64,000 nucleotides of DNA, from the NCBI RefSeq assembly GCF_011045215.1, contig NZ_CP049201.1. One strand, given 5' to 3'. This document shows, piece after piece, positions 1-11,729 of this stretch. This DNA is from Escherichia coli. Lineage in GTDB: Bacteria; Pseudomonadota; Gammaproteobacteria; Enterobacterales; Enterobacteriaceae. Made by a program: the position numbers and the translations under genes. The notes beneath the pieces are model-generated. The model was not told the DNA's origin, did no database searches, and saw nothing but the letters and a program-made list of their open reading frames with translations. How positions within the stretch are numbered: position 1 is the first letter of the stretch; the number at the start of each line of letters is the position of its first letter.

Positions 1-147
1 GGCGTGGCCCGGGGCATCACGCTTCATACCGCGGTGAAGGACGACGACAGCGAGGTGGCCGGGATTATCCGCGCACTGCTTGCTGGTGAGGAAAACGCCA
101 GGCTGCGTGCAGCCCACTGGTTACATGAGAGGGGGCTGAAAGTATGA
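1..147 (+). CDS. 3' end of an upstream phage late-region ORF (partial, function unknown)
   Basis: Frame 1 is open from the window edge to TGA at 145-147, overlapping the ATG of the next gene (ATGA coupling). No family recognised from the 48 visible residues. Confidence 0.35.
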   Translation, partial: GVARGITLHTAVKDDDSEVAGIIRALLAGEENARLRAAHWLHERGLKV

Positions 148-521
148 AGCTGATTCTGCCTTTTCCACCCAGCGTGAACACCTACTGGCGACACCCCAAC
201 AAAGGGGCATTTGCTGGTAAGAGCCTGATAAGCGCGGCGGGGCGAAAATTCCAGAGTGCGGCGTGCACAGCAATAGTTGAGCAGTTACGTCGTCTGCCGA
301 AACCAACGTCGGCACCTGCTTCAGTGGAGATCGTGTTGTTTCCTCCGGATAACCGGATCCGCGATCTGGACAACTATAACAAGGCGCTGTTTGACGCCCT
401 GACCCACGCGGGTGTGTGGGAAGACGACAGCCAGGTGAAAAGAATGCTGGTGGAGTGGGGACCGGTTATCCCGGAAACGGATGTTGCGGGTTGTTGTTCT
501 GCGGGTTCTGTTCTTCGTTGA
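144..521 (+). CDS. RusA-family Holliday-junction resolvase-like protein
   Basis: 125-aa ORF with motifs LPFPPSVNTYWRH and RIRDLDNYNKALFDALTHAGVWEDDSQV, matching the RusA signature ([41 protein letters not shown]) including the acidic catalytic residues. Confidence 0.6.
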   Translation: MKLILPFPPSVNTYWRHPNKGAFAGKSLISAAGRKFQSAACTAIVEQLRRLPKPTSAPASVEIVLFPPDNRIRDLDNYNKALFDALTHAGVWEDDSQVKRMLVEWGPVIPETDVAGCCSAGSVLR

Positions 522-912: not shown

Positions 913-1458
913 ATGGAAGTCAACAAAAAGCAGCTGGCTGACATTTTCGGTGCGAGTATCCGTACCATTCAGAACTGGCAGGAACAGGGAATGCCCGTTC
1001 TGCGAGGCGGTGGCAAGGGTAATGAGGTGCTTTATGACTCTGCCGCCGTCATAAAATGGTATGCCGAAAGGGATGCTGAAATTGAGAACGAAAAGCTGCG
1101 CCGGGAGGTTGAAGAACTGCGGCAGGCCAGCGAGACAGATCTCCAGCCAGGGACTATTGAGTACGAACGCCATCGACTTACGCGTGCGCAGGCCGACGCA
1201 CAGGAGCTGAAAAATGCCAGAGACTCCGCTGAAGTGGTGGAAACCGCATTCTGTACTTTCGTGCTGTCGCGGATCGCAGGTGAAATTGCCAGTATTCTCG
1301 ACGGGATCCCCCTGTCGGTGCAGCGGCGTTTTCCGGAACTGGAAAACCGACATGTTGATTTCCTGAAACGGGATATCATCAAAGCCATGAACAAAGCAGC
1401 CGCGCTGGATGAACTGATACCGGGGTTGCTGAGTGAATATATCGAACAGTCAGGTTAA
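913..1458 (+). CDS. nohD: Phage terminase small subunit Nu1 (DNA-packaging protein)
   Basis: 181-aa product MEVNKKQLADIFGASIRTIQNWQEQGMPVLRGGGKGNEVLYDSAAVIKWY... is essentially identical to lambda Nu1; its 3' end overlaps the start of gene A as in lambda. Confidence 0.95.
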   Translation: MEVNKKQLADIFGASIRTIQNWQEQGMPVLRGGGKGNEVLYDSAAVIKWYAERDAEIENEKLRREVEELRQASETDLQPGTIEYERHRLTRAQADAQELKNARDSAEVVETAFCTFVLSRIAGEIASILDGIPLSVQRRFPELENRHVDFLKRDIIKAMNKAAALDELIPGLLSEYIEQSG

Positions 1459-2452
1459 CAGGCTGCGGCATTTTGTCCGCGCCGGGCTTCGCTCACTGTT
1501 CAGGCCGGAGCCACAGACCGCCGTTGAATGGGCGGATGCCAATTACTATCTCCCAAAAGAATCCGCATACCAGGAAGGGCGCTGGGAAACACTGCCCTTT
1601 CAGAGGGCCATCATGAATGCGATGGGCAGTGACTACATCCGCGAGGTGAATGTGGTGAAGTCTGCCCGTGTTGGTTATTCCAAAATGCTGCTGGGTGTTT
1701 ATGCCTACTTCATAGAGCATAAGCAGCGCAATACCCTTATCTGGTTGCCGACGGATGGTGATGCCGAGAACTTTATGAAAACCCACGTTGAGCCGACTAT
1801 TCGTGATATTCCGTCGCTGCTGGCGCTGGCCCCGTGGTATGGCAAAAAGCACCGGGATAACACGCTCACCATGAAGCGTTTCACCAATGGGCGTGGCTTC
1901 TGGTGCCTGGGCGGTAAAGCGGCAAAAAACTACCGTGAAAAGTCAGTGGATGTGGCGGGTTATGATGAACTTGCTGCCTTTGATGAGGATATTGAACAGG
2001 AAGGCTCTCCGACGTTCCTGGGCGATAAGCGTATTGAAGGCTCGGTCTGGCCAAAGTCCATCCGTGGCTCCACGCCCAAAGTGAGAGGCACCTGCCAGAT
2101 TGAGCGTGCAGCCAGTGAATCCCCGCATTTTATGCGTTTTCATGTTGCCTGCCCGCATTGCGGGGAGGAGCAGTATCTTAAATTTGGCGACAAAGAGACG
2201 CCGTTTGGCCTCAAATGGACGCCGGATGACCCCTCCAGCGTGTTTTATCTCTGCGAGCATAATGCCTGCGTCATCCGCCAGCAGGAGCTGGACTTTACTG
2301 ATGCCCGTTATATCTGCGAAAAGACCGGGATCTGGAGGGGAATACCAACATCGCCGGTGTCACGGTGGTGTTCCGGGCAGGTGAACAGGAGCAGACACCG
2401 CCGGAGGGATTTGAATCCTCCGGATCCGAGACGGTGCTGGGTACGGAAGTGA
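1433..2452 (+). pseudogene. Terminase large subunit (lambda gpA) N-terminal ~300 codons, truncated; A-like sequence ends near 2335 and the ORF runs on out of frame to 2452
   Basis: MNISNSQVNRLRHFVRAGLRSLFRPEPQTAVEWADANYYLPKESAYQEGRWETLPFQRAIMNAMGSDYIREV...CEKTGIW matches lambda gpA, then continues as unrelated residues RGIPTSPVSRW... gpA is ~640 aa in lambda. Confidence 0.85.
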
Positions 2453-2823
2453 AATACGACACGCCGATCACCCGGACCATCACGTCTGCAAACATCGACC
2501 GTCTGCGCTTTACCTTCGGTGTGCAGGCACTGGTGGAAACCACCTCAAAGGGGGACCGGAATCCATCGGAAGTCCGCCTGCTGGTTCAGATACAACGTAA
2601 CGGTGGCTGGGTGACGGAAAAAGACATCACCATTAAGGGCAAAACCACCTCGCAGTATCTGACCTCGGTGGTGGTGGGTAACCTGCCGCCGCGCCCGTTT
2701 AATATCCGGATGCGCAGGATGACGCCGGACAGCACCACAGACCAGCTGCAGAACAAAACGCTCTGGTCGTCATACACCGAAATCATCGATGTGAAACAGT
2801 GCTACCTTCTGCCCGTAAGGTGA
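2338..2823 (+). pseudogene. Internal fragment (~160 codons) of lambda-like tail-tip/host-specificity gene J, with no N-terminus or C-terminus
   Basis: Translation ...VVFRAGEQEQTPPEGFESSGSETVLGTEVKYDTPITRTITSANIDRLRFTFGVQALVETTSKGDRNPSEVRLLVQIQRNGGWVTEKDITIKGKTTSQY...IIDVKQCY matches the middle of lambda J. It is in a different frame from the truncated A and ends in unrelated sequence. Confidence 0.8.
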
Positions 2824-4004
2824 ATGGTAAGGCGCTTTCAGCGGATATAACACTGACGCCGAAAGATATTGGTACGCTTAACTCAACAACAATGTCATTC
2901 AGCGGTGGTGCTGGTTGGTTCAAATTAGCAACGGTAACCATGCCACAGGCGAGTTCTGTTGTTTCAATTACGTTGATTGGTGGAGCTGGATTTAACGTGG
3001 GGTCACCTCAACAGGCAGGTATATCTGAACTTGTTTTGCGTGCAGGTAATGGTAATCCGAAGGGGATTACTGGTGCTTTATGGCAGCGCACATCGACAGG
3101 GTTTACAAATTTTGCCTGGGTCAATACATCTGGTGATACTTACGATATTTACGTTGCAATCGGAAATTATGCGACTGGTGTAAATATTCAATGGGATTAT
3201 ACCAGTAATGCCAGCGTGACGATTCATACGTCACCAGCATATTCTGCTAATAAGCCGGAAGGGTTAACGGACGGTACAGTTTATTCACTCTATACGCCAT
3301 CAGAACAGTTTTATCCGCCTGGCGCACCAATCCCGTGGCCATCAGATACCGTTCCGTCTGGCTATGCCCTGATGCAGGGGCAGACTTTTGACAAATCTGC
3401 CTACCCGAAACTTGCAGTCGCTTATCCGTCAGGCGTGATCCCTGATATGCGTGGCTGGACGATTAAGGGCAAGCCCGCCAGTGGTCGTGCCGTATTGTCT
3501 CAGGAACAGGACGGCATTAAATCGCATACCCACAGCGCCAGCGCATCCAGTACGGATTTGGGTACGAAAACCACATCGTCGTTTGATTACGGAACCAAAT
3601 CCACGAATAACACCGGGGCGCATACCCATAGTATTAGCGGGACTGCAAATAGTGCCGGTGCGCACCAACACAAGAGTTCCGGTGCATTTGGTGGCACGAA
3701 CACGAGCATTTTTCCTAATGGTTATACTGCGATTTCAAATCCAAGCGCGGGGATTATGAGCACAACAAGCGGTACTGGCCAGACTCGTAATGCAGGGAAG
3801 ACATCATCAGATGGTGCTCATACCCACTCACTGTCCGGCACTGCTGCAAGCGCAGGTGCACACGCACATACTGTCGGTATTGGTGCTCATACGCACTCCG
3901 TTGCGATTGGTTCACATGGACACACCATCACCGTTAACGCTGCTGGTAACGCGGAAAACACCGTCAAAAACATCGCATTTAACTATATTGTGAGGCTTGC
4001 ATAA
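2799..4004 (+). CDS. Side tail fibre protein, C-terminal receptor-binding portion with His-box repeats (probably a 5'-truncated remnant using an internal GTG)
   Basis: 401-aa ORF with repeated GAHTHS/GAHQH/GAHAHT/GSHGHT motifs and a C-terminal ...[22 protein letters not shown] typical of lambdoid Stf and T4 gp37-like fibre tips. Its stop overlaps the tfa start (TAATGG). The N-terminal tail-attachment region expected for Stf is absent. Confidence 0.65.
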
Positions 4005-4585
4005 TGGCATTCAGAATGAGTGAACAACCACGGACCATAAAAATTTATAATCTGCTGGCCGGAACTAATGAATTTATTGGTGAAGGTGACGCATATATTC
4101 CACCTCATACAGGTCTGCCAGCAAACAGTACCGATATTGCACCGCCAGATATTCCGGCAGGCTTCGTGGCTGTTTTCAACAGTGATGAGGCATCGTGGCA
4201 TCTTGTTGAAGACCATCGGGGTAAAACGGTTTATGACGTGGCTTCCGGCGACGCGTTATTTATTTCTGAACTCGGCTTATTACCGGAAAATGTCACCTGG
4301 TTATCCCCGGAAGGGGAGTTTCAGAAGTGGAACGGCACAGCCTGGGTGAAAGATGCAGAAGCAGAAAAACTGTTCCGGATCCGGGAGGCGGAAGAAACAA
4401 AAAACAACCTGATGCAGGTAGCCAGTGAGCATATTGCGCCACTTCAGGATGCTGTAGATCTGGAAATCGCAACGGAGGAAGAAAACTCGTTGCTGGAAGC
4501 CTGGAAGAAGTATCGGGTGTTGCTGAACCGTGTTGATACATCAACTGCACCTGATATTGAGTGGCCTGTAATACCAGAAGTTTAA
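4004..4585 (+). CDS. Tail fibre assembly protein (Tfa)
   Basis: 193-aa ORF translationally coupled to stf; the C-terminus ...[49 protein letters not shown] is the conserved Tfa motif. Confidence 0.85.
4431..4543 (+). repeat. Direct repeat copy 1: 3' segment of tfa (about 88% identical to 8260-8373)
   Basis: atattgcgccacttcaggatgctgtagatctggaaatcgcaacggaggaagaaaactcgttgctggaagcctggaagaagtatcgggtg... is nearly repeated at 8260-8373. Confidence 0.8.
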
Positions 4586-4589
4586 AATA

Positions 4590-4617
4590 AAAGCCCGCTT
4601 AAAATATCGCGGGCTTC
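4590..4617 (-). terminator. Hairpin (aaagcccgc...gcgggcttt) with a T-run on the minus strand; candidate terminator for the minus-strand catalase operon and possibly for tfa
   Basis: Inverted repeat aagcccgc / gcgggctt between convergent tfa and catalase genes; the minus-strand reading gives the stem followed by TTATTTTA. Confidence 0.5.
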
Positions 4618-4704
4618 GAAATATAAATGTATTTTCAGAGGCTAGAGCTTAGGATATCTCAGCGGCAATTAACTTATGAGGGATAGCTAAATACCAGAAG
4701 ATAA

Positions 4705-5595
4705 TTAGTTTTTACTATTTATCTTTGTTTGTGGTTCTCCTTCAGCAAGCTCAGCGCCAGTGACAGGATTGATGTCTTCATGGGATTTCAACCTTGTTGC
4801 CATAGCTTTTATCATAGCTTCTTGCTTGGTCGAAAGATTTATCGAGGCCTTCCCATCCCCACCGTCAACCGCTGGAACTGGATCGGAAATATAGTCAAAG
4901 TTTTCATCACTGTTCCAACTACCTCTGACGTCTTCACCTTCTGACATGTTGTAATATACGTTTTTGTATTTCTCAATTGGTGGTAATTTTCCTGGTGGAA
5001 AGGTGTTGCGAATTGAATGTAATGCTTTTTCAAATGAAAGCATGTGTGCTGCTTCCCTGGTCATTAAAAATGCCAGAGTGTCTTTTACTCCAGGATCATC
5101 AGTAACATTAATGAGACGTTCGTAAATGATCTTTGCCCGAGCTTCAGCTGCAATATTTGAACGAAGATCGGCCGTGACTTCGCCAATAGTATCAACATAA
5201 GCTGCAGTCCAGGGTACTCCAGCTGAATTAGTTAATGCTGGGCCTCCTCCGTAGAGGAGAGAAGTTATATGGCTGTCATTGCCATTTTGAGTTAAGGAAC
5301 GGTAAAGCTCAGCTTCATTCTCAGTTCCTTCAGCAAGTGCTCCTTTTGCACCTTTGTTGAGCATACCAACAAGAGAACCAATAATTTCGAGATGACTTAG
5401 TTCTTCTGTTGCTATGTCCATCAGCATATCCCTTCGGCCTGCATCTTCATCACTTAAGCCTTGAGTGAAGTATCGGCATGCTGCTGCAAGCTCACCCTGT
5501 GGCCCGCCGAATTGTTCTAAAAGTAGATTAGCCAAGCCTGGGTTTGGCTCACTTACACGTACTGTATATTGAAGTTTTTTCACGTGTCTAAACAT
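4705..5595 (-). CDS. Manganese (non-haem) catalase, KatN-like
   Basis: 296-aa product with ferritin-like Mn-catalase architecture (…EELSHLEIIGSLV…, …TREAAHMLSFEKAL…). It is last in a yciG-yciF-yciE-catalase gene order, as in the Salmonella yciGFE-katN operon. Confidence 0.8.
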   Translation of the reverse strand: MFRHVKKLQYTVRVSEPNPGLANLLLEQFGGPQGELAAACRYFTQGLSDEDAGRRDMLMDIATEELSHLEIIGSLVGMLNKGAKGALAEGTENEAELYRSLTQNGNDSHITSLLYGGGPALTNSAGVPWTAAYVDTIGEVTADLRSNIAAEARAKIIYERLINVTDDPGVKDTLAFLMTREAAHMLSFEKALHSIRNTFPPGKLPPIEKYKNVYYNMSEGEDVRGSWNSDENFDYISDPVPAVDGGDGKASINLSTKQEAMIKAMATRLKSHEDINPVTGAELAEGEPQTKINSKN

Positions 5596-5613
5596 AATGC
5601 CTCCTCAAAAGAA

Positions 5614-6120
5614 TTATTTTTTGGCTTCAACTCCATCAATTTCAGATCTGACCATGAATTGCTCAGTGGTGTCAGGAATATGGTTAAGAAGCCATTCAGC
5701 CATTTGTTTTTCTTCATTAAGAATTGCTTCAATAATGGGTACTGAAGCTGTATCACCCGCATTTTTGGCTGCTGCGAGAAGAGATGTGTAGCACGCAATT
5801 TCAAATTGTTCGAAAACATAGCCACTGATCGAACCTTTGACAATTTCATCAGATGGAAAAATTCCACCAATGGATTGCCCAAACGCGGCCATTTTACTCA
5901 TAGAGTCTTTAATGACAGAGCGCGAAATATTATTACGATCAAGTATGCTTTCAAGCTGTGAAAGCTGGTTCTTTGTTTCGCTAATGTGCTGCTCAATTCT
6001 GGAACGTAACTCTGGATAGTTTTCTATCCGGCTGGCCATAGACTCAAGCATTTTTTCAGCTTGTTTCTCCATCGCATGTGCATCACGAAGCCAGTCATGG
6101 TAATGTTCAATTCTATTCAT
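5614..6120 (-). CDS. YciE-like ferritin-like/DUF892 stress protein
   Basis: 168-aa product MNRIEHYHDWLRDAHAMEKQAEKMLESMASRIENYPELR... closely resembles E. coli YciE. Confidence 0.85.
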   Translation of the reverse strand: MNRIEHYHDWLRDAHAMEKQAEKMLESMASRIENYPELRSRIEQHISETKNQLSQLESILDRNNISRSVIKDSMSKMAAFGQSIGGIFPSDEIVKGSISGYVFEQFEIACYTSLLAAAKNAGDTASVPIIEAILNEEKQMAEWLLNHIPDTTEQFMVRSEIDGVEAKK

Positions 6121-6156
6121 AATCTGTTTATCCTAAAAGAAATTGAAGTCTATAGT

Positions 6157-6663
6157 TCAGGAGTTATCCTGAGCTTTTTTATTAACGTTATTAAATGCCA
6201 GGTCTGTTAATTTGACATCAGTAGCTTTTTCCTCTTCCAGTGTTTCTTTCAGGAGTTTAGCCGCTTTTTTATATCCTAATTGCTCAGCGAGTGTTACCAA
6301 AGTGCCATAACTGGCAATTTCATAGTGCTCTACTTTTTGTGCTGCAGCAATCAATGCAGCATCACGTACTTCATTTTTATCAGTGCTTTCAATTACCTCA
6401 TTCGCCTCTTCGATAAGTCCTTCCATTGCGGCACACTTAATTCTTTTCAATTTAAGACCATCTTCAGAATCAACAATCTGATCGATGCGTTCAATTTGAC
6501 CATGTGTCTCATCAAGATGTGACTGAAAAGCAGCGGTTAATTTATCACTATATGCAGAGCGACTAAGTTTAGACAGTGCCTTTGTTAGTTGTTTCTCAGC
6601 GCTGTATGTATCCGATAATAAGTGGATGAAGATATCTTCAACAGATTTAATTTGCATAATCAC
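6157..6663 (-). CDS. YciF-like DUF892 stress protein
   Basis: 168-aa product ...VEDIFIHLLSDTYSAEKQLTKAL...EVRDAALIAAAQKVEHYEIASYGTL... closely resembles E. coli YciF. Confidence 0.85.
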   Translation of the reverse strand: MIMQIKSVEDIFIHLLSDTYSAEKQLTKALSKLSRSAYSDKLTAAFQSHLDETHGQIERIDQIVDSEDGLKLKRIKCAAMEGLIEEANEVIESTDKNEVRDAALIAAAQKVEHYEIASYGTLVTLAEQLGYKKAAKLLKETLEEEKATDVKLTDLAFNNVNKKAQDNS

Positions 6664-6735
6664 TCCAGAGTTTTCACTGCGAGCCCGTAGGCTCGCAGTT
6701 AGCTTCAGTTATTCACGAATGTAGGGGATGATAAA

Positions 6736-6918
6736 TTAAGAGTCAGATTTACGGCCGCCACCATGGCTATTCTGACCACCTTTTTTCCCTGCTTCTGATG
6801 CTCTTTGTGGATCGTTTTTAAAATTACCGCCACTATGTTGGCCGCCTTTACGACCAGCGTCAGAAGCTTTTTGTCGATCTTCAGCGAAATTACCTGCACC
6901 GCCACGATGTTCGGTCAT
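6736..6918 (-). CDS. YciG-like KGG-repeat general stress protein
   Basis: 60-aa product MTEHRGGAGNFAEDRQKASDAGRKGGQHSGGNFKNDPQRASEAGKKGGQ... with KGG repeats, resembling YciG/YmdF; first gene of the four-gene minus-strand operon. Confidence 0.8.
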   Translation of the reverse strand: MTEHRGGAGNFAEDRQKASDAGRKGGQHSGGNFKNDPQRASEAGKKGGQNSHGGGRKSDS

Positions 6919-7383
6919 ATCATTTCTCCTCTGATTTTCAAATTGTAAATAACATGTGCCTTGTCAGCACCCAATTAACTCTAGTAACAAATAAGAAAGT
7001 GTCAAATAACAGATTGGTATGCGCATTTTGATGTGAGAAATAATAATTGTAAAAATGTGCGCTCAGTGAGTATAATCTATTGATATCTTAGTGATTAACG
7101 GAAAATTTAGGTTGTAACTCAAAAGATTAATAAACCTAAATTTACATTTCTATATTATTTGGTGTGCCTGTTGTTGTTTTTCTCAATAAGAATACTCTGT
7201 AAAATAATTCAATCGTAAGATGGTTGTTATTCATATTTTTTTGAGATAGTTCCTAATAGGGTCCATCCCTTGAATAAATAATTGTTTTAAAATTTCGTCT
7301 AAAGAACTAATTACAAGAAAATTTATATAGTCCAAGGAATCATGATTGTACTTAACCATAAGATTTGAGCGTAAAAATTAATG

Positions 7384-7414
7384 CGCAGCACGTCGTATGC
7401 AAGAACGTGCTGCG
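7384..7414 (-). terminator. Rho-independent terminator candidate downstream of the methyltransferase gene
   Basis: 9-bp perfect stem cgcagcacg / cgtgctgcg; on the minus strand it is followed by ATTAATTTTT. Confidence 0.55.
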
Positions 7415-7422
7415 GTTGGATG

Positions 7423-8091
7423 CTATTTTTTCCCTGAAGCGGAAAACATTACTACAGTACCTTGAACCTTGGTTTTAACATTCTCGAAATGCTCTGAGAG
7501 TATATGTGTTAAGCCTTCTTCGGAATCTCTTGTGTTTGAAAAGATGCCTTTCTGATTGTAAATGCGCATCAGTTTTTGACCGAAGCGATTGTGCACAATT
7601 CCATCGCCAAGAATTGTGGCTCCGTATAGAGTTCCATCGCCAGTTAAGGCCTGCGCCGCATTGCGTATTACACAGCTTTTTGTAGATATATTTCCAGGCA
7701 GGCAGTGAAGAAGGTAAAACATGGAAATGGAATCAAATTGACCATGTAACGCCGCGGGATAAGGTTCAAAAACATCATGGCTAATTTTATGTTTAATTTT
7801 TGATTCCCCAGCCCTTGTAGATGCCGCGTTCAGGCTAGCTTCGTTCAAATCCATTAAAGATATCAGACTACTCTCAGGTACGTGAGTAAGGTAAAACCCA
7901 GTTCCAACACCAATATCCAGATGGTTGTTACCTAAATGTTCCAGAAAGTGTGGAAGAAGGTGTTCCTTTGTAGGACATCCCCATGCAAGCCGATTTGATA
8001 CTCCCAAAACCCACCAGTCATAAAGCTTTAGGGTAAGTGGTGTGTAAATTTTAGCCCCATCATCTGTGTTTTTTTTCATTAATTTCACCAT
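7423..8091 (-). CDS. ybcY: Class I SAM-dependent methyltransferase (YbcY-like), apparently intact
   Basis: 222-aa ORF with the SAM-binding motif LDIGVGTGFY and a Rossmann-type methyltransferase layout. It occupies the ybcY position of DLP12, between the tfa copies. Confidence 0.7.
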   Translation of the reverse strand: MVKLMKKNTDDGAKIYTPLTLKLYDWWVLGVSNRLAWGCPTKEHLLPHFLEHLGNNHLDIGVGTGFYLTHVPESSLISLMDLNEASLNAASTRAGESKIKHKISHDVFEPYPAALHGQFDSISMFYLLHCLPGNISTKSCVIRNAAQALTGDGTLYGATILGDGIVHNRFGQKLMRIYNQKGIFSNTRDSEEGLTHILSEHFENVKTKVQGTVVMFSASGKK

Positions 8092-8147
8092 GTTATAGTT
8101 TTATTTGTGAATTAAATCAATTATGGCAATGAATTACAAGGGGTTAA

Positions 8148-8453
8148 ATGCTGCCGCAGCATGGCGATATTGAAATAGCCTGGTATGCTTCAATACAGCA
8201 GGAGCCGAATGGCTGGAAGACCGTCACCACACAGTTCTACATCCAGGAATTCAGTGAGTATATTGCGCCACTGCAGGATGCTGTAGATCTGGAAATCGCA
8301 ACGGAGGAAGAAAGATCGTTGCTGGAGGCATGGAATAAATATCGGGTATTGTTGAATCGTGTTGATACATCAGTAGCTCTGGGTATGAAGCTGTTTGTAA
8401 CTCATGTTACAGTAACAGCCATTACTATCTCGAAGGTGCAAAATGTATATTGA
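8148..8453 (+). pseudogene. tfaX: Tail fibre assembly gene remnant (tfaX-like), carrying only part of the Tfa C-terminal domain
   Basis: 101-aa ORF with ...[38 protein letters not shown]... but no Tfa N-terminal half, and a divergent C-terminal tail. Confidence 0.7.
8260..8373 (+). repeat. Direct repeat copy 2: tfa 3' segment (pairs with 4431-4543)
   Basis: tattgcgccactgcaggatgctgtagatctggaaatcgcaacggaggaagaaagatcgttgctggaggcatggaataaatatcgggta... Confidence 0.8.
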
Positions 8454-8581
8454 TTTGATATTTTATAAATTTACTTCGAATCTGGCACGTCAACTTTTGA
8501 TTAAAGTAATATCAGTTTTCGGCGAAAAAAGGACCGTGTACATGAGACGATTTCATACAAGAATAACAAAAATATGAATAT

Positions 8582-8615
8582 GCTCCCAATGCAATATATG
8601 TTTTGCATTGGGAGC
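8582..8615 (-). terminator. Rho-independent terminator candidate for the peptidase gene
   Basis: 12-bp stem gctcccaatgca / tgcattgggagc; the minus-strand reading is followed by a T-rich run. Confidence 0.55.
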
Positions 8616-8636
8616 AAATAGCGGAATATTTTGAAA

Positions 8637-10121
8637 TTATTGTATTTCTGCTTCAGAATTTCCTGGGCAGTATATATTTTCTATTTTTTGTGGAGTGATC
8701 AGGTGATGTACAACTGCTTTATCTACACATAAATTAACTCCGGTGAGAGCTAATGTATGCCCATCACCATTTATTGTTAGTAACGGGCTGGAAAATTTCT
8801 CTGCCATCTTACGGGCATTAATCCAGGGCGTTGTTGGATCGTATTTGTGTGCTACAAACAGTAAACCAGAGGGCAGAACAGTATTTTTCAGGCGAGTTTT
8901 GTTCAGGTCGCTATGTATTGGCCATAATTCACAAAAATCAGGTGAATCGGAACGTCCATTGTCAAAGTTAATAGCCGGGAAGGCATTCGCAAGAGCCTCT
9001 TTTCGGAATTTTCGCTCTTCTGGTGTTAATTGCTCATCCCCCTGATCTACACAAAGGATTACCCCCGAAGCATCACTTGACTCTTCTGAGGCTATCGGAG
9101 CACTGAGCGCAGTTTCAATTTCATTACTGACAATCCCCTGAGAGAACTGGCGTATGGCAGTTGCAAGGGTTGGCCATGATGAACGCCATAGCAGAAGGTC
9201 TGTTGTTAATGATATGAGTTCATCTGAAGATATATTTTCTCCCTTACTGTCTAATAAAGGTTTGTGATGTAATTTTGATAATAGCTCATGGAACTGAGTT
9301 ATTGCCTTATCTCTGTCTGAAGAAAGCGGGCAACTTTTTGTACGCGCACACCAGGATGCAAAGCGATCAAACGTTTCCTGATAACTCTGTGCCTGTTTGA
9401 GTTGCCATGTGAAGTTGTTCTCCAGGTCATCGATATCGACGACTCCATCAAGAACGATAGATCTTACGTTGTAGGGAAAACGTTCTGCATATAAGGCTGC
9501 AATTTGAGTTCCATACGAATACGCCACGGCTGTCAGTTGTTTATCCCCCAAGGCTTGCCTAATACGATCAATATCGTATACAGCCTCGTTAGAGCCGATA
9601 TGGCGAATGACTTCGGCTCCGGTATTATGGATACAGGCATTAATTTTATTTAATACTTGTTGCTTTTCGGTTATGTTTTCCTGAGTCTCTGTATCTGATT
9701 GTCGGCAGTTTATTGTCGGAGTGGACTGTCCGACGCCTCGAGGATCAAATCCAATAATATCCCATGACTCACGAAGATTTGTGACTGGCCAGTCAAAGTT
9801 AATATAAGGATTTATGCCTGGCAACCCGGGACCACCACTTATTATCAGGATACTTCCTTTATGCTTGCTTTTTGCCGGCAATTTTGTCAACGCTAGTTTG
9901 ACTTGTGATTTTTTTTCATAAGAAGCATCTCCGCCTGTGTCTGTATATTTTAATGGAACAGACAAATAACCACATAGTAAGTCAGGAGACGGTTTTTCCT
10001 CACCAAACCAGTGGTTGAATTGACTGGCCATACAGGATTGCCACTGTATCTGCTGGGCAGATACGGTTACTGGTAGAAGTAACGTTAAAACAACTTTGAA
10101 ATGAGTAATTATTTTTCGCAT
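8637..10121 (-). CDS. Secreted alpha/beta-hydrolase, S33-type (tripeptidyl/prolyl aminopeptidase-like) peptidase
   Basis: 494-aa ORF with an N-terminal signal peptide (MRKIITHFKVVLTLLLPVTVSA), a GGPGLPG oxyanion-type motif and a nucleophile elbow VAYSYGTQ (G-x-S-x-G variant). Confidence 0.65.
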   Translation of the reverse strand: MRKIITHFKVVLTLLLPVTVSAQQIQWQSCMASQFNHWFGEEKPSPDLLCGYLSVPLKYTDTGGDASYEKKSQVKLALTKLPAKSKHKGSILIISGGPGLPGINPYINFDWPVTNLRESWDIIGFDPRGVGQSTPTINCRQSDTETQENITEKQQVLNKINACIHNTGAEVIRHIGSNEAVYDIDRIRQALGDKQLTAVAYSYGTQIAALYAERFPYNVRSIVLDGVVDIDDLENNFTWQLKQAQSYQETFDRFASWCARTKSCPLSSDRDKAITQFHELLSKLHHKPLLDSKGENISSDELISLTTDLLLWRSSWPTLATAIRQFSQGIVSNEIETALSAPIASEESSDASGVILCVDQGDEQLTPEERKFRKEALANAFPAINFDNGRSDSPDFCELWPIHSDLNKTRLKNTVLPSGLLFVAHKYDPTTPWINARKMAEKFSSPLLTINGDGHTLALTGVNLCVDKAVVHHLITPQKIENIYCPGNSEAEIQ

Positions 10122-11684: not shown

Positions 11685-11729
11685 CTTCTAAGTCGTGGGC
11701 CGCAGGTTCGAATCCTGCAGGGCGCGCCA
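11685..11729 (+). other. Prophage attR: duplicated 3' ~45 nt of tRNA-Arg (argU); a tRNA fragment, not a functional gene
   Basis: cttctaagtcgtgggccgcaggttcgaatcctgcagggcgcgcca is the 3' half of argU, with no matching 5' half or D-arm upstream. This is the expected right junction of an argU-integrated prophage. Confidence 0.85.

Follow-up and report, generated by a model that had tools for sequence, protein, structure and literature searches.

The stretch of Escherichia coli DNA analysed here, 64,000 nucleotides long and called the window throughout, carries on its minus strand four intact genes between positions 6918 and 4705, in the order yciG-yciF-yciE-katN. The unit is very probably a second copy, of foreign lineage, of the enterobacterial stress operon, a self-contained moron that a decayed lambdoid prophage of the DLP12 type carries at its right end and that acts by the mechanism proposed below. 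It is the same element as the KatN operon Z1921-Z1924 of cryptic prophage CP-933X in E. coli O157:H7 EDL933 and as such already known; control by RpoS and H-NS, catalase activity and an H2O2 phenotype would be expected here by analogy with that copy, which is 99-100% identical. A prophage remnant can in this way give back to E. coli a haem-independent catalase that is missing from its yciGFE locus and that Salmonella has kept at that site, a point already made and tested for EHEC O157:H7. What is new here is minor: the rare DLP12 site, the occurrence in strains that are not only pathogens, the divergent upstream allele, the module in Citrobacter cronae and the foreign-lineage ancestry. These details of context could interest those who study how horizontally acquired genes are controlled by H-NS and RpoS; they open no new question.

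Gene content and the manganese catalase

An earlier note on this DNA, made from the sequence alone, had described a four-gene unit on the minus strand with the gene order of the Salmonella yciGFE-katN operon and had stated that the chromosomal yciGFE locus of K-12 has no catalase. All of this agrees with what we found. The four reading frames are in the list of open reading frames of the window (Table 1), the Salmonella locus reads trpA-yciG-yciF-yciE-katN-ompW, and K-12 has trpA-yciGFE-ompW with no katN. A KGG protein, two DUF892 proteins and a Mn catalase follow one another on one strand with gaps of 78, 36 and 18 nt (yciG-yciF, yciF-yciE and yciE-katN), which is the Salmonella-type order. 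An in-frame GTG at 6663 is an alternative start of yciF and would give 168 aa. A 42-aa reading frame in the upstream region (7359-7231) was not accepted as a gene because the O157 allele has TTG and then TAG in place of its start codon. Rfam gave no match within the cassette; its sole hits were IS009 on the two tfa 3' ends and two weak ones at chance level.

Table 1. Features of the cassette and its surroundings, in positions of the window
Feature	Positions	Strand	Description
Tail-fibre assembly gene, tfaD-like	4004..4585	+	PHROG 105 at 3e-99; collinear with K-12 tfaD
Cassette block	4568..7384	.	~2.8 kb, absent from otherwise collinear K-12 DLP12, which has 36 unrelated bases there instead (blastn and alignments)
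Intrinsic terminator	4581..4617	-	9-bp GC-rich stem (4617-4590), then UUUUAUUUU; -16 kcal/mol, z -3.0
katN	4705..5595	-	Di-manganese (non-haem) catalase, 296 aa; Shine-Dalgarno GAGGAGG 5' of start
yciE-like gene	5614..6120	-	DUF892 ferritin-like, 168 aa
yciF-like gene	6157..6657	-	DUF892 ferritin-like, 166 aa from ATG at 6657
Stem-loop in the yciG-yciF spacer	6676..6699	-	GC-rich; -21 kcal/mol, z -3.5; without U-tract in this copy
yciG-like gene	6736..6918	-	60 aa, hydrophilic; two KGG repeats (Pfam); Shine-Dalgarno GAGGAG 5' of start
Core promoter	6978..7005	-	-35 TTGACA (7005-7000), 16-nt spacer, -10 TAGAGT (6983-6978); TTGACA-16-cTAGAGTtaa
Distal upstream region of yciG	7006..7384	-	AT-rich, 27% GC; minority allele
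SAM-dependent methyltransferase gene, ybcY-like	7384..8091	-	CDS 7423-8091, intact; open reading frame and annotation in related genomes
28-nt motif like a tRNA 3' end	11702..11729	+	Exact motif, found once; position fits the K-12 DLP12 right boundary

The earlier note had called the 296-aa product a Mn catalase and had made the claim depend on the Glu/His ligand set of the di-Mn centre. KatN matches the Pfam family Mn_catalase (PF05067) at full length with an E value of 1.1e-86 (residues 1-270 on model positions 1-261 of 284), and its residues E35, E65, H68, E151 and H184 align with Glu35, Glu66, His69, Glu148 and His181 of Lactobacillus plantarum, which we take to be the di-Mn ligand set of that enzyme (1JKU). 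With all five ligands in place the identification stands. Tyr42, the residue mutated in 1O9I, is present as well. Against Mn catalases in the PDB the E values ranged overall from about 5e-47 to 1e-15, with ~1e-47 for 4R42/6J42 and 5e-35 for 1JKU. With the structurally characterised enzymes of Anabaena (KatB, Alr3090; 4R42, 6J42), L. plantarum (1JKU) and Thermus thermophilus (2V8T/2V8U), KatN shares the ferritin-like four-helix-bundle domain (residues 1-240) and the common Glu/Glu-x-x-His/Glu/Glu-x-x-His di-Mn site. It has an extra C-terminal tail of 56 residues past the core of KatB, and its Ala150 aligns with position 147 of the L. plantarum enzyme, just before ligand Glu148, where that enzyme has Arg and KatB also has Ala. 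KatN scores 167.3 bits against NCBIfam NF052557 (ManCatBAC), below the cut-off of 350 bits, and is therefore a member of the Mn-catalase family and not this equivalog. In RefSeq it goes under the name 'manganese catalase family protein', and its exact sequence is already present in public E. coli assemblies.

The two DUF892 proteins match their Pfam family at about 1e-50 (YciE) and 3e-54 (YciF). In the PDB, YciE matches E. coli YciE (3OGH) at 3e-97, and YciF matches 2GS4 at 2e-82 and Salmonella YciF (4ERU) at 3e-80. Di-metal site residues were examined in YciF, where E21, E50, Q54, E110, H111, E113 and E143 are kept relative to the Salmonella protein. Three of them, Q54, E113 and E143, are the residues mutated in published work, and ferroxidase activity among DUF892/YciE-YciF proteins is known for Salmonella YciF only (bioRxiv 10.1101/2023.01.20.524870).

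Prophage setting and distribution

The operon had also been placed inside a prophage. PHROGs matches around the cassette (RusA, small terminase, a truncated large terminase, a J fragment, tail fibre and Tfa) and the alignment with K-12 DLP12 bear this out, but the element is a cryptic remnant and not intact: it is a decayed lambdoid prophage of the DLP12 type at the argU site. The tfaD-like gene, convergent with katN, forms the left phage flank. The methyltransferase gene lies directly upstream of the cassette as the right flank; ybcY is a pseudogene in K-12 and intact in the window, and the terminator hairpin of the gene (7414-7384) has -18 kcal/mol. The 28-nt motif is presumably an attachment site of the argU type that forms the right end of the DLP12-like prophage, and on this reading the cassette would lie about 4.3 kb inside the prophage boundary. 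No complete tRNA gene was found in the window. With a promoter and a terminator of its own, a base composition unlike that of its surroundings (39% GC, flanks 52-53%) and its absence from the collinear K-12 DLP12, the cassette has the marks of a phage moron, and the four-gene module also occurs in other prophage contexts (O157-type and Citrobacter cronae).

Among 5426 complete E. coli genomes 380 have the cassette, only 25 of them at this DLP12 site, compared with 4715 that have the K-12-type yciGFE locus. When 50,697 phage records were searched with the cassette by megablast, only matches of 36-46 nt came up, at the methyltransferase-proximal end over the methyltransferase terminator region. 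Searching the phage records with KatN by tblastn returned two unannotated 'phage' fragments of 1.6-2.2 kb with 84% identity; they resemble Salmonella and probably represent host DNA. The other matches were distant (30-48%). Neither a complete sequenced phage genome nor a plasmid carrying the cassette was found. A search for the chromosomal donor turned up no KatN with an identity between 88% and 99% outside the E. coli/Citrobacter cluster.

Control sequences and proposed mechanism

An RpoS-type -10 upstream of 6918 was something the earlier note had suggested looking for, and there is one. In the best promoter match of the region (TTGACA/TAGAGT, 10/12) the spacer ends in C at -13 and TAA follows the -10. 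This core promoter is the same, letter for letter, in the O157 copy, and its TTGAC and CTA elements are invariant in the yciG upstream regions of Salmonella, Kluyvera and K-12. Transcription is expected to start near 6971. Beyond the core promoter the window has a different allele: the 400 bp from 7001 to 7400 are 63-91% identical to those of O157 per 100 nt, compared with at least 99% in the flanks, and the allele of the window (identity at least 95%) is found in 31 of 381 carrier genomes. The distal region is probably bound and silenced by H-NS, and since the allele studied in O157 is a different one, silencing or activation could be stronger or weaker here. A broader scenario would have the cassette as a discrete module of four genes with some 500 bp of regulatory sequence, derived from an enterobacterial donor and shuttled between Escherichia and Citrobacter by lambdoid phages; the minority upstream allele may then alter control, for example through weaker H-NS silencing or changed activator input. 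We hold this only tentatively and think it rather unlikely; if it were true, expression of the operon here would differ from that in the EHEC strain that supplied all data on regulation.

For that strain the published record is detailed. Z1922-Z1924 are RpoS-dependent, 35- to 137-fold (Dong and Schellhorn 2009, PMC2907692). RpoS is essential for transcription of EHEC katN, which goes up ~450-fold upon hns deletion, purified EHEC KatN has a catalase activity of 268 U/mg, and a katN mutant is sensitive to H2O2 (Wan et al. 2017, PLoS Pathog, PMC5363993). No match to the OxyR consensus with up to three mismatches was found anywhere in the window, and the effect of OxyR reported in the literature may accordingly be indirect.

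The four genes are predicted to be co-transcribed in this strain, and Wan et al. name the O157 genes an operon (PMC5363993). No U-tract terminator lies between the genes; the first one is 3' of katN, in the spacer toward the convergent tfa gene. The stem-loop between yciG and yciF is conserved in structure: all nine pairs form in four out of four loci compared, with two compensatory double changes, in a spacer that is merely 64% conserved. It may serve mRNA stabilisation, processing or partial attenuation. The stem-loop could also stop some transcripts, which counts against one full-length mRNA.

Taken together, the operon might work as follows. RNA polymerase with sigma-S would start at the promoter ~55 nt upstream of yciG, while in growing cells the AT-rich upstream DNA would be silenced by H-NS. 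A single mRNA, with a ribosome-binding site for each of the four closely spaced genes, would extend to the intrinsic terminator past katN. KatN, with its ferritin fold, would disproportionate H2O2 without haem by means of two Mn ions that have three Glu and two His as ligands. YciF, and by homology probably YciE, would be di-iron four-helix bundles resembling ferroxidases that remove Fe2+ and hence lessen Fenton chemistry, and YciG may be a small general-stress protein with KGG repeats. The net effect would be added protection of the host against peroxide and iron stress in stationary phase.

Alternative explanations and known relatives

The earlier note had spoken of a paralogous copy. The cassette is indeed homologous to the host yciGFE locus, but it is no duplicate of it. 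A recent duplication that gained a catalase gene could explain the gene order in common and the 80-88% protein identity to K-12 YciG, YciF and YciE. However, the DNA is only 74-78% identical to K-12 yciGFE with dS saturated, which rules this origin out; K-12 and Salmonella are equally distant from the cassette, a unit of four genes that includes katN is the common arrangement in enterobacteria, and a Citrobacter cronae prophage remnant has the same module at 89% DNA identity. We give a recent duplication practically no chance. Because synonymous sites are saturated against both K-12 and Salmonella, the copy came in from a different lineage. It might also be asked whether the cassette is of any use to the host, or whether it is foreign DNA that H-NS keeps silent and that has survived in a dead prophage by chance. 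Its low GC content (39%, and 27% upstream), the strong H-NS repression published for the O157 copy (PMC5363993), the truncated or deleted phage genes next to it and the loss of the block from K-12 without obvious harm would all fit such a silent passenger. Yet the four reading frames, ribosome-binding sites, promoter and terminator are intact amid wrecked phage genes, and hundreds of genomes share the coding sequences with 99-100% identity, at two chromosomal sites. Differences are mostly synonymous (10 synonymous and 4 non-synonymous to the O157 copy); with dN of 0.08-0.13 at saturated dS against K-12 and Salmonella, the substitution pattern indicates that the cassette is under long-term purifying selection. 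The O157 copy is moreover strongly expressed in stationary phase and has an H2O2 phenotype (PMC2907692, PMC5363993). That the cassette is useless to its host is hence quite improbable.

A less remote, though still unlikely, alternative is that KatN is mainly a secreted type VI effector, delivered into phagocytes to lower ROS, and not mainly a cytoplasmic stress enzyme. It draws on the T6SS-dependent secretion and lower macrophage ROS published for the 99%-identical Z1921 protein (Wan et al. 2017, PMC5363993), and it leaves room for a cytoplasmic role. In the window, searches by domain and by annotation in the surroundings of the cassette identified phage genes, ompT, envY, ybcH and nfrA/B and no T6SS gene, and the reading frames beyond 13.6 kb were assigned from their sizes by comparison with the order of genes in K-12. 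KatN itself has no recognisable effector or adaptor domain besides Mn_catalase. Wild animals, pigs and seawater are the main sources of the 25 complete genomes that have the cassette at the DLP12 site. The genes that accompany katN encode cytoplasmic stress proteins, and the Salmonella counterpart is a chromosomal sigma-S stress operon. These points argue for the reading as a stress operon of the host cell.

The closest known system is the O157:H7 operon Z1921-Z1924, with the same four genes in the same order, protein identities of 100% (YciG, YciE), 99.4% (YciF) and 99.0% (KatN), and a 5' leader and coding DNA identical or nearly so. The phage flanks are in common too, tfa on one side and the methyltransferase gene on the other, with an alpha/beta hydrolase gene and ompT further on. 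In an O157-type genome (strain 9000), however, the cassette adjoins minCDE, whereas that of the window sits in the DLP12/argU remnant beside envY-ybcH-nfrA, and in the O157-type locus an IS66 element separates the tfa fragment from the hydrolase gene. The Salmonella enterica operon has the same order and similar sizes (60/167/168/292 aa), and the kinship of the products that the earlier note proposed is borne out by identities of 80-84% (KatN ~82-84%: 82% global, 84% local). Its TTGAC and CTA promoter elements and its yciG-yciF stem-loop are also conserved, but it lies in the core chromosome between trpA and ompW and not in a prophage, its DNA is only 72-79% identical, and the upstream regulatory DNA is otherwise unalignable. 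Robbe-Saule and colleagues (in 2001) and Beraud and colleagues (in 2010) are said to have found the Salmonella operon to be sigma-S dependent, and the latter reportedly mapped the yciG promoter and a YncC site. K-12 yciGFE (b1259-b1257) encodes homologous products with 83% (YciG), 80% (YciF) and 88% (YciE) identity and has RpoS-type promoter elements and the stem-loop as in the window, but ompW follows directly after yciE. The prophage remnant of Citrobacter cronae (GCA_016502145.1, locus L008) has four genes of equal lengths and 88.8% DNA identity over 7422-4703 of the window, the whole upstream region included. Its neighbours, too, are lambdoid remnants (a GpJ C-terminal fragment, an integrase fragment, dinI and umuDC), but the chromosomal site is another one, next to phoPQ, and this copy shares neither the downstream terminator nor the tfa and methyltransferase flanks with the window.

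Gene products of the cassette

Four consecutive minus-strand genes form the cassette, and the ORF listing gives exactly the positions at which the earlier note had placed a yciG-yciF-yciE-Mn catalase unit, with Pfam and structure matches in agreement. These domain and structure matches lie far beyond chance. Among solved structures, YciF matches E. coli YciF (2GS4, 2e-82) and YciE matches E. coli YciE (3OGH, 3e-97), while KatN matches Anabaena KatB (4R42/6J42, ~1e-47), the L. plantarum Mn catalase (1JKU, 5e-35) and also the Thermus enzyme. In our alignment E35, E65, H68, E151 and H184 of KatN fall on L. plantarum Glu35, Glu66, His69, Glu148 and His181, which we take to be the di-Mn ligands of 1JKU. 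The di-Mn ligand set of KatN is complete by this alignment and supports the earlier assignment to the Mn catalases, against which missing ligands had been named as an example of contrary evidence. The NCBIfam 'ManCatBAC' equivalog model gave 167 bits against a cut-off of 350 bits, so KatN is a member of the family and not a ManCatBAC equivalog; its RefSeq name, 'manganese catalase family protein', agrees with this score. The exact KatN sequence is already present in public E. coli assemblies. YciF keeps Q54, E113 and the bridging E143, all mutated in a ferroxidase study of Salmonella YciF (bioRxiv 10.1101/2023.01.20.524870), and also E21, E50, E110 and H111.

Features of the cassette and its surroundings (positions in the window)
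Feature	Position	Strand	Evidence or remark
RusA	144-521		PHROGs
Small terminase	913-1458		PHROGs
Large terminase, cut to about half length	1433-2452		PHROGs
Tail protein J fragment	2365-2823		PHROGs
Tail fibre, C-terminal part	2799-4004		PHROGs
Tfa	4004-4585		PHROGs
tfa 3'-end repeat	4412-4565	plus	
Extra relative to K-12 DLP12	4568-7384		36 unrelated bases in K-12 instead
Terminator stem 3' of katN	4617-4590		then UUUUAUUUU; -16 kcal/mol
katN ORF	5595-4705	minus	296 aa; Pfam Mn_catalase, E 1e-86
yciE-like ORF	6120-5614	minus	168 aa; Pfam DUF892, E 1e-50
yciF-like ORF	6663 or 6657-6157	minus	168 or 166 aa; Pfam DUF892, E 3e-54
Stem-loop after yciG	6699-6676	minus	9-10 bp, GC; -21 kcal/mol, z -3.5
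yciG-like ORF	6918-6736	minus	60 aa; ORF listing; Pfam KGG repeat x2
Putative yciG promoter	7005-6978	minus	TTGACA, 16-nt spacer, TAGAGT
Hypervariable upstream patch	7001-7400		
Terminator of methyltransferase gene	7414-7384		
tfa 3'-end repeat	8241-8372	plus	
Alpha/beta hydrolase	8637-10121	minus	494 aa
Motif resembling tRNA 3' end	11702-11729		28 nt, exact

Expression signals

The putative yciG promoter is the best sigma-70-family match of the region. A C directly precedes its -10 and TAA directly follows it, both hallmarks of RpoS-preferred promoters; the RpoS-type -10 to be looked for upstream of 6918 is thus present as a sequence feature. Aligned with one another, the sequences 5' of yciG from Salmonella, K-12, Kluyvera intestini and the window show poor overall conservation, yet TTGAC, the C-T-A starting the -10 and a GTG(C/T)(T/C)GACA box are invariant or nearly so.

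Every one of the four genes has a Shine-Dalgarno sequence, and the intergenic spacers measure 78, 36 and 18 nt. The stem-loop after yciG is the sole stable intergenic structure. Its pairing is kept in the prophage copy and in the K-12, Salmonella and Kluyvera loci, where two double changes are compensatory, while the rest of the spacer is poorly conserved. U-rich sequence comes after the stem-loop in Kluyvera and Salmonella, but no U-tract in the window copy. The element may set how much yciG transcript is made relative to downstream transcript. An intrinsic terminator follows katN, and the ybcY-like methyltransferase gene immediately upstream ends in its own; at either end, the cassette is therefore insulated from neighbouring transcription.

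Prophage site and upstream allele

The location inside a prophage, as first proposed, is borne out by the PHROGs phage genes and by collinearity with the K-12 cryptic prophage DLP12 (nohD, aaaD, tfaD, ybcY, tfaX, ompT, then envY, ybcH, nfrA). In the large terminase ORF the terminase match ends at about residue 323, and around 2335-2452 the ORF overlaps sequence matching tail gene J of related prophages, so nearly all head and tail genes were lost by deletion (window 1433-2823); the same decay left a shorter remnant, aaaD, in K-12. The prophage region ends at the tRNA-like motif, presumably the argU-type right attachment site of a DLP12-like prophage; in all 64 kb of the window, ARAGORN detected no complete tRNA gene. 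GC content is 39% in the block and 27% in its upstream region against 52-53% in the flanks. With its own insulation, its absence from K-12 DLP12, its deviant GC and its decayed phage surroundings, the cassette looks in every respect like a moron carried by a dead prophage.

The two direct tfa 3'-end repeats are 88% identical and bracket the cassette plus methyltransferase gene. Both match Rfam family IS009, whose gathering score is 117 bits: one exceeds it at 168 bits and the other, at 111 bits, falls just short. Through recombination between the repeats, the enclosed block could be gained or lost. The hydrolase, with weak prolyl-aminopeptidase similarity, takes the slot that appY has in K-12 DLP12 and strain JNEC-KY175, and the same gene adjoins ompT in the O157-type prophage read as CP-933X; the right arm hence combines segments of K-12 type with segments of O157 type in a mosaic.

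The whole cassette was found in 380 of 5426 complete E. coli genomes, and many listed carriers are O157:H7 strains. Only 25 of the 5426 have the window-type arrangement, queried as cassette and methyltransferase gene joined to ompT-envY-ybcH; the remaining ~355 carriers hold the cassette at other sites. The sources of these 25 include otter, baboon, blackbird, rodent, pig, seawater and humans, so that the published description of katN as a marker of pathogenic strains needs qualification. In 100-nt windows, identity to the O157 copy is 98-100% through the cassette genes and the methyltransferase gene, and 91, 86, 63 and 83% in the hypervariable patch upstream of yciG. Such divergence between near-identical flanks requires recombination, not local mutation. 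The window-type upstream allele, defined by at least 95% identity, is the minority one (31 of 381 carriers, with 9 further at 90-95%), and about 341 of the 381 carry the O157-type allele (~80% identity to the window's). The published regulatory data all come from the majority allele, not from that of the window.

Origin, rival readings and known relatives

A KatN-encoding Salmonella contig reads trpA, yciG (60 aa), yciF (167), yciE (168), katN (292), ompW, the same G-F-E-catalase order that the earlier note had recognized, and K-12 reads trpA, yciG, yciF, yciE, ompW, without a catalase gene, as it had stated. A K-12-type yciGFE locus occurs in 4715 of the 5426 genomes, so a second, chromosomal copy in the source strain is likely; megablast left it undetected in 691 (~13%). 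Could the cassette be a recent duplicate of that locus? YciG is 83% identical to both the K-12 and the Salmonella protein (DNA identity to K-12 75.8%), YciF 80% to both (73.5%) and YciE 88% and 83% (77.7%); KatN, absent from K-12 as protein and DNA, is 82% (global) or 84% (local) identical to the Salmonella protein. Synonymous sites are saturated against both reference loci, with dN of 0.08-0.13. Recent duplication is refuted by these values; the cassette instead represents an old lineage of the yciGFE-katN operon that has evolved separately, was acquired horizontally and is under purifying selection. Outside the E. coli/Citrobacter cluster the nearest KatN proteins (Kosakonia, Kluyvera, Phytobacter, Salmonella) are 84-87% identical, and the protein search beyond that 90%-identity cluster gave no closer donor lineage. 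The Kluyvera operon is chromosomal and adjoins cytochrome bd genes; its YciF and YciE share only 66% identity with those of the window.

The window cassette is very probably a sigma-S-driven, H-NS-silenced four-gene stress operon. Sigma-S would drive its transcription and H-NS would silence it; the end product would be the haem-independent di-Mn catalase KatN, partnered by ferritin-like ferroxidases and a KGG-repeat stress protein. That the cassette is a silent relic is contradicted by its functional elements, all intact and conserved amid decayed phage genes, and by the expression of the O157 copy. EHEC KatN has also been described as a T6SS effector, and its T6SS-dependent secretion was reported (PMC5363993); our domain and annotation searches around the cassette gave no T6SS component or effector domain.

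No cassette was found on plasmids or in any of the 50,697 phage records searched. Two short, unannotated records labelled Salmonella and Escherichia phages (OR851627.1 and OR845539.1; 1.6 and 2.2 kb) each encode a KatN 84% identical to that of the window, the Salmonella-type value, and look like host chromosomal fragments, not phage genomes. The KatN 90%-identity cluster also takes in Citrobacter cronae, where the same four genes (GCA_016502145.1; cassette at 7107-9893 of the locus examined) show 88.8% DNA identity over window 7422-4703, the full upstream region included. Its copy lies in a different lambdoid remnant adjoining phoPQ, with a GpJ C-terminal fragment, an integrase fragment, dinI and umuDC around it. 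The module has hence spread between genera and between prophages.

The operon was already known from E. coli O157:H7. Wan et al. 2017 named Z1921 KatN (84% identical to Salmonella KatN) and stated that on cryptic prophage CP-933X katN and z1922-z1924 form an operon, a homologue of yciGFE-katN (PMC5363993). In EHEC, KatN has a catalase activity of 268 U/mg and the katN mutant is H2O2-sensitive; RpoS is essential and OxyR stimulatory for katN transcription, which rises ~450-fold in an hns mutant (PMC5363993). Dong and Schellhorn 2009 list RpoS dependence of 35-fold (Z1922), 64-fold (Z1923) and 137-fold (Z1924) beside chromosomal yciGFE (PMC2907692). A pattern search of the window for the OxyR consensus, allowing up to 3 mismatches, gave no match, so the published OxyR effect may be indirect. 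The experiments suggested in the earlier note have thus largely been done by others on an essentially identical copy; its observation is confirmed and its interpretation supported. In our O157-type reference, the single genome of strain 9000, the cassette follows a complete tail gene set and lies between tfa and the same methyltransferase gene; an IS66 element, the alpha/beta hydrolase gene and ompT follow, and the locus adjoins minCDE. The proteins of the two copies are 100% (YciG, YciE), 99.4% (YciF) and 99.0% (KatN) identical, and core promoter and leader agree base for base.
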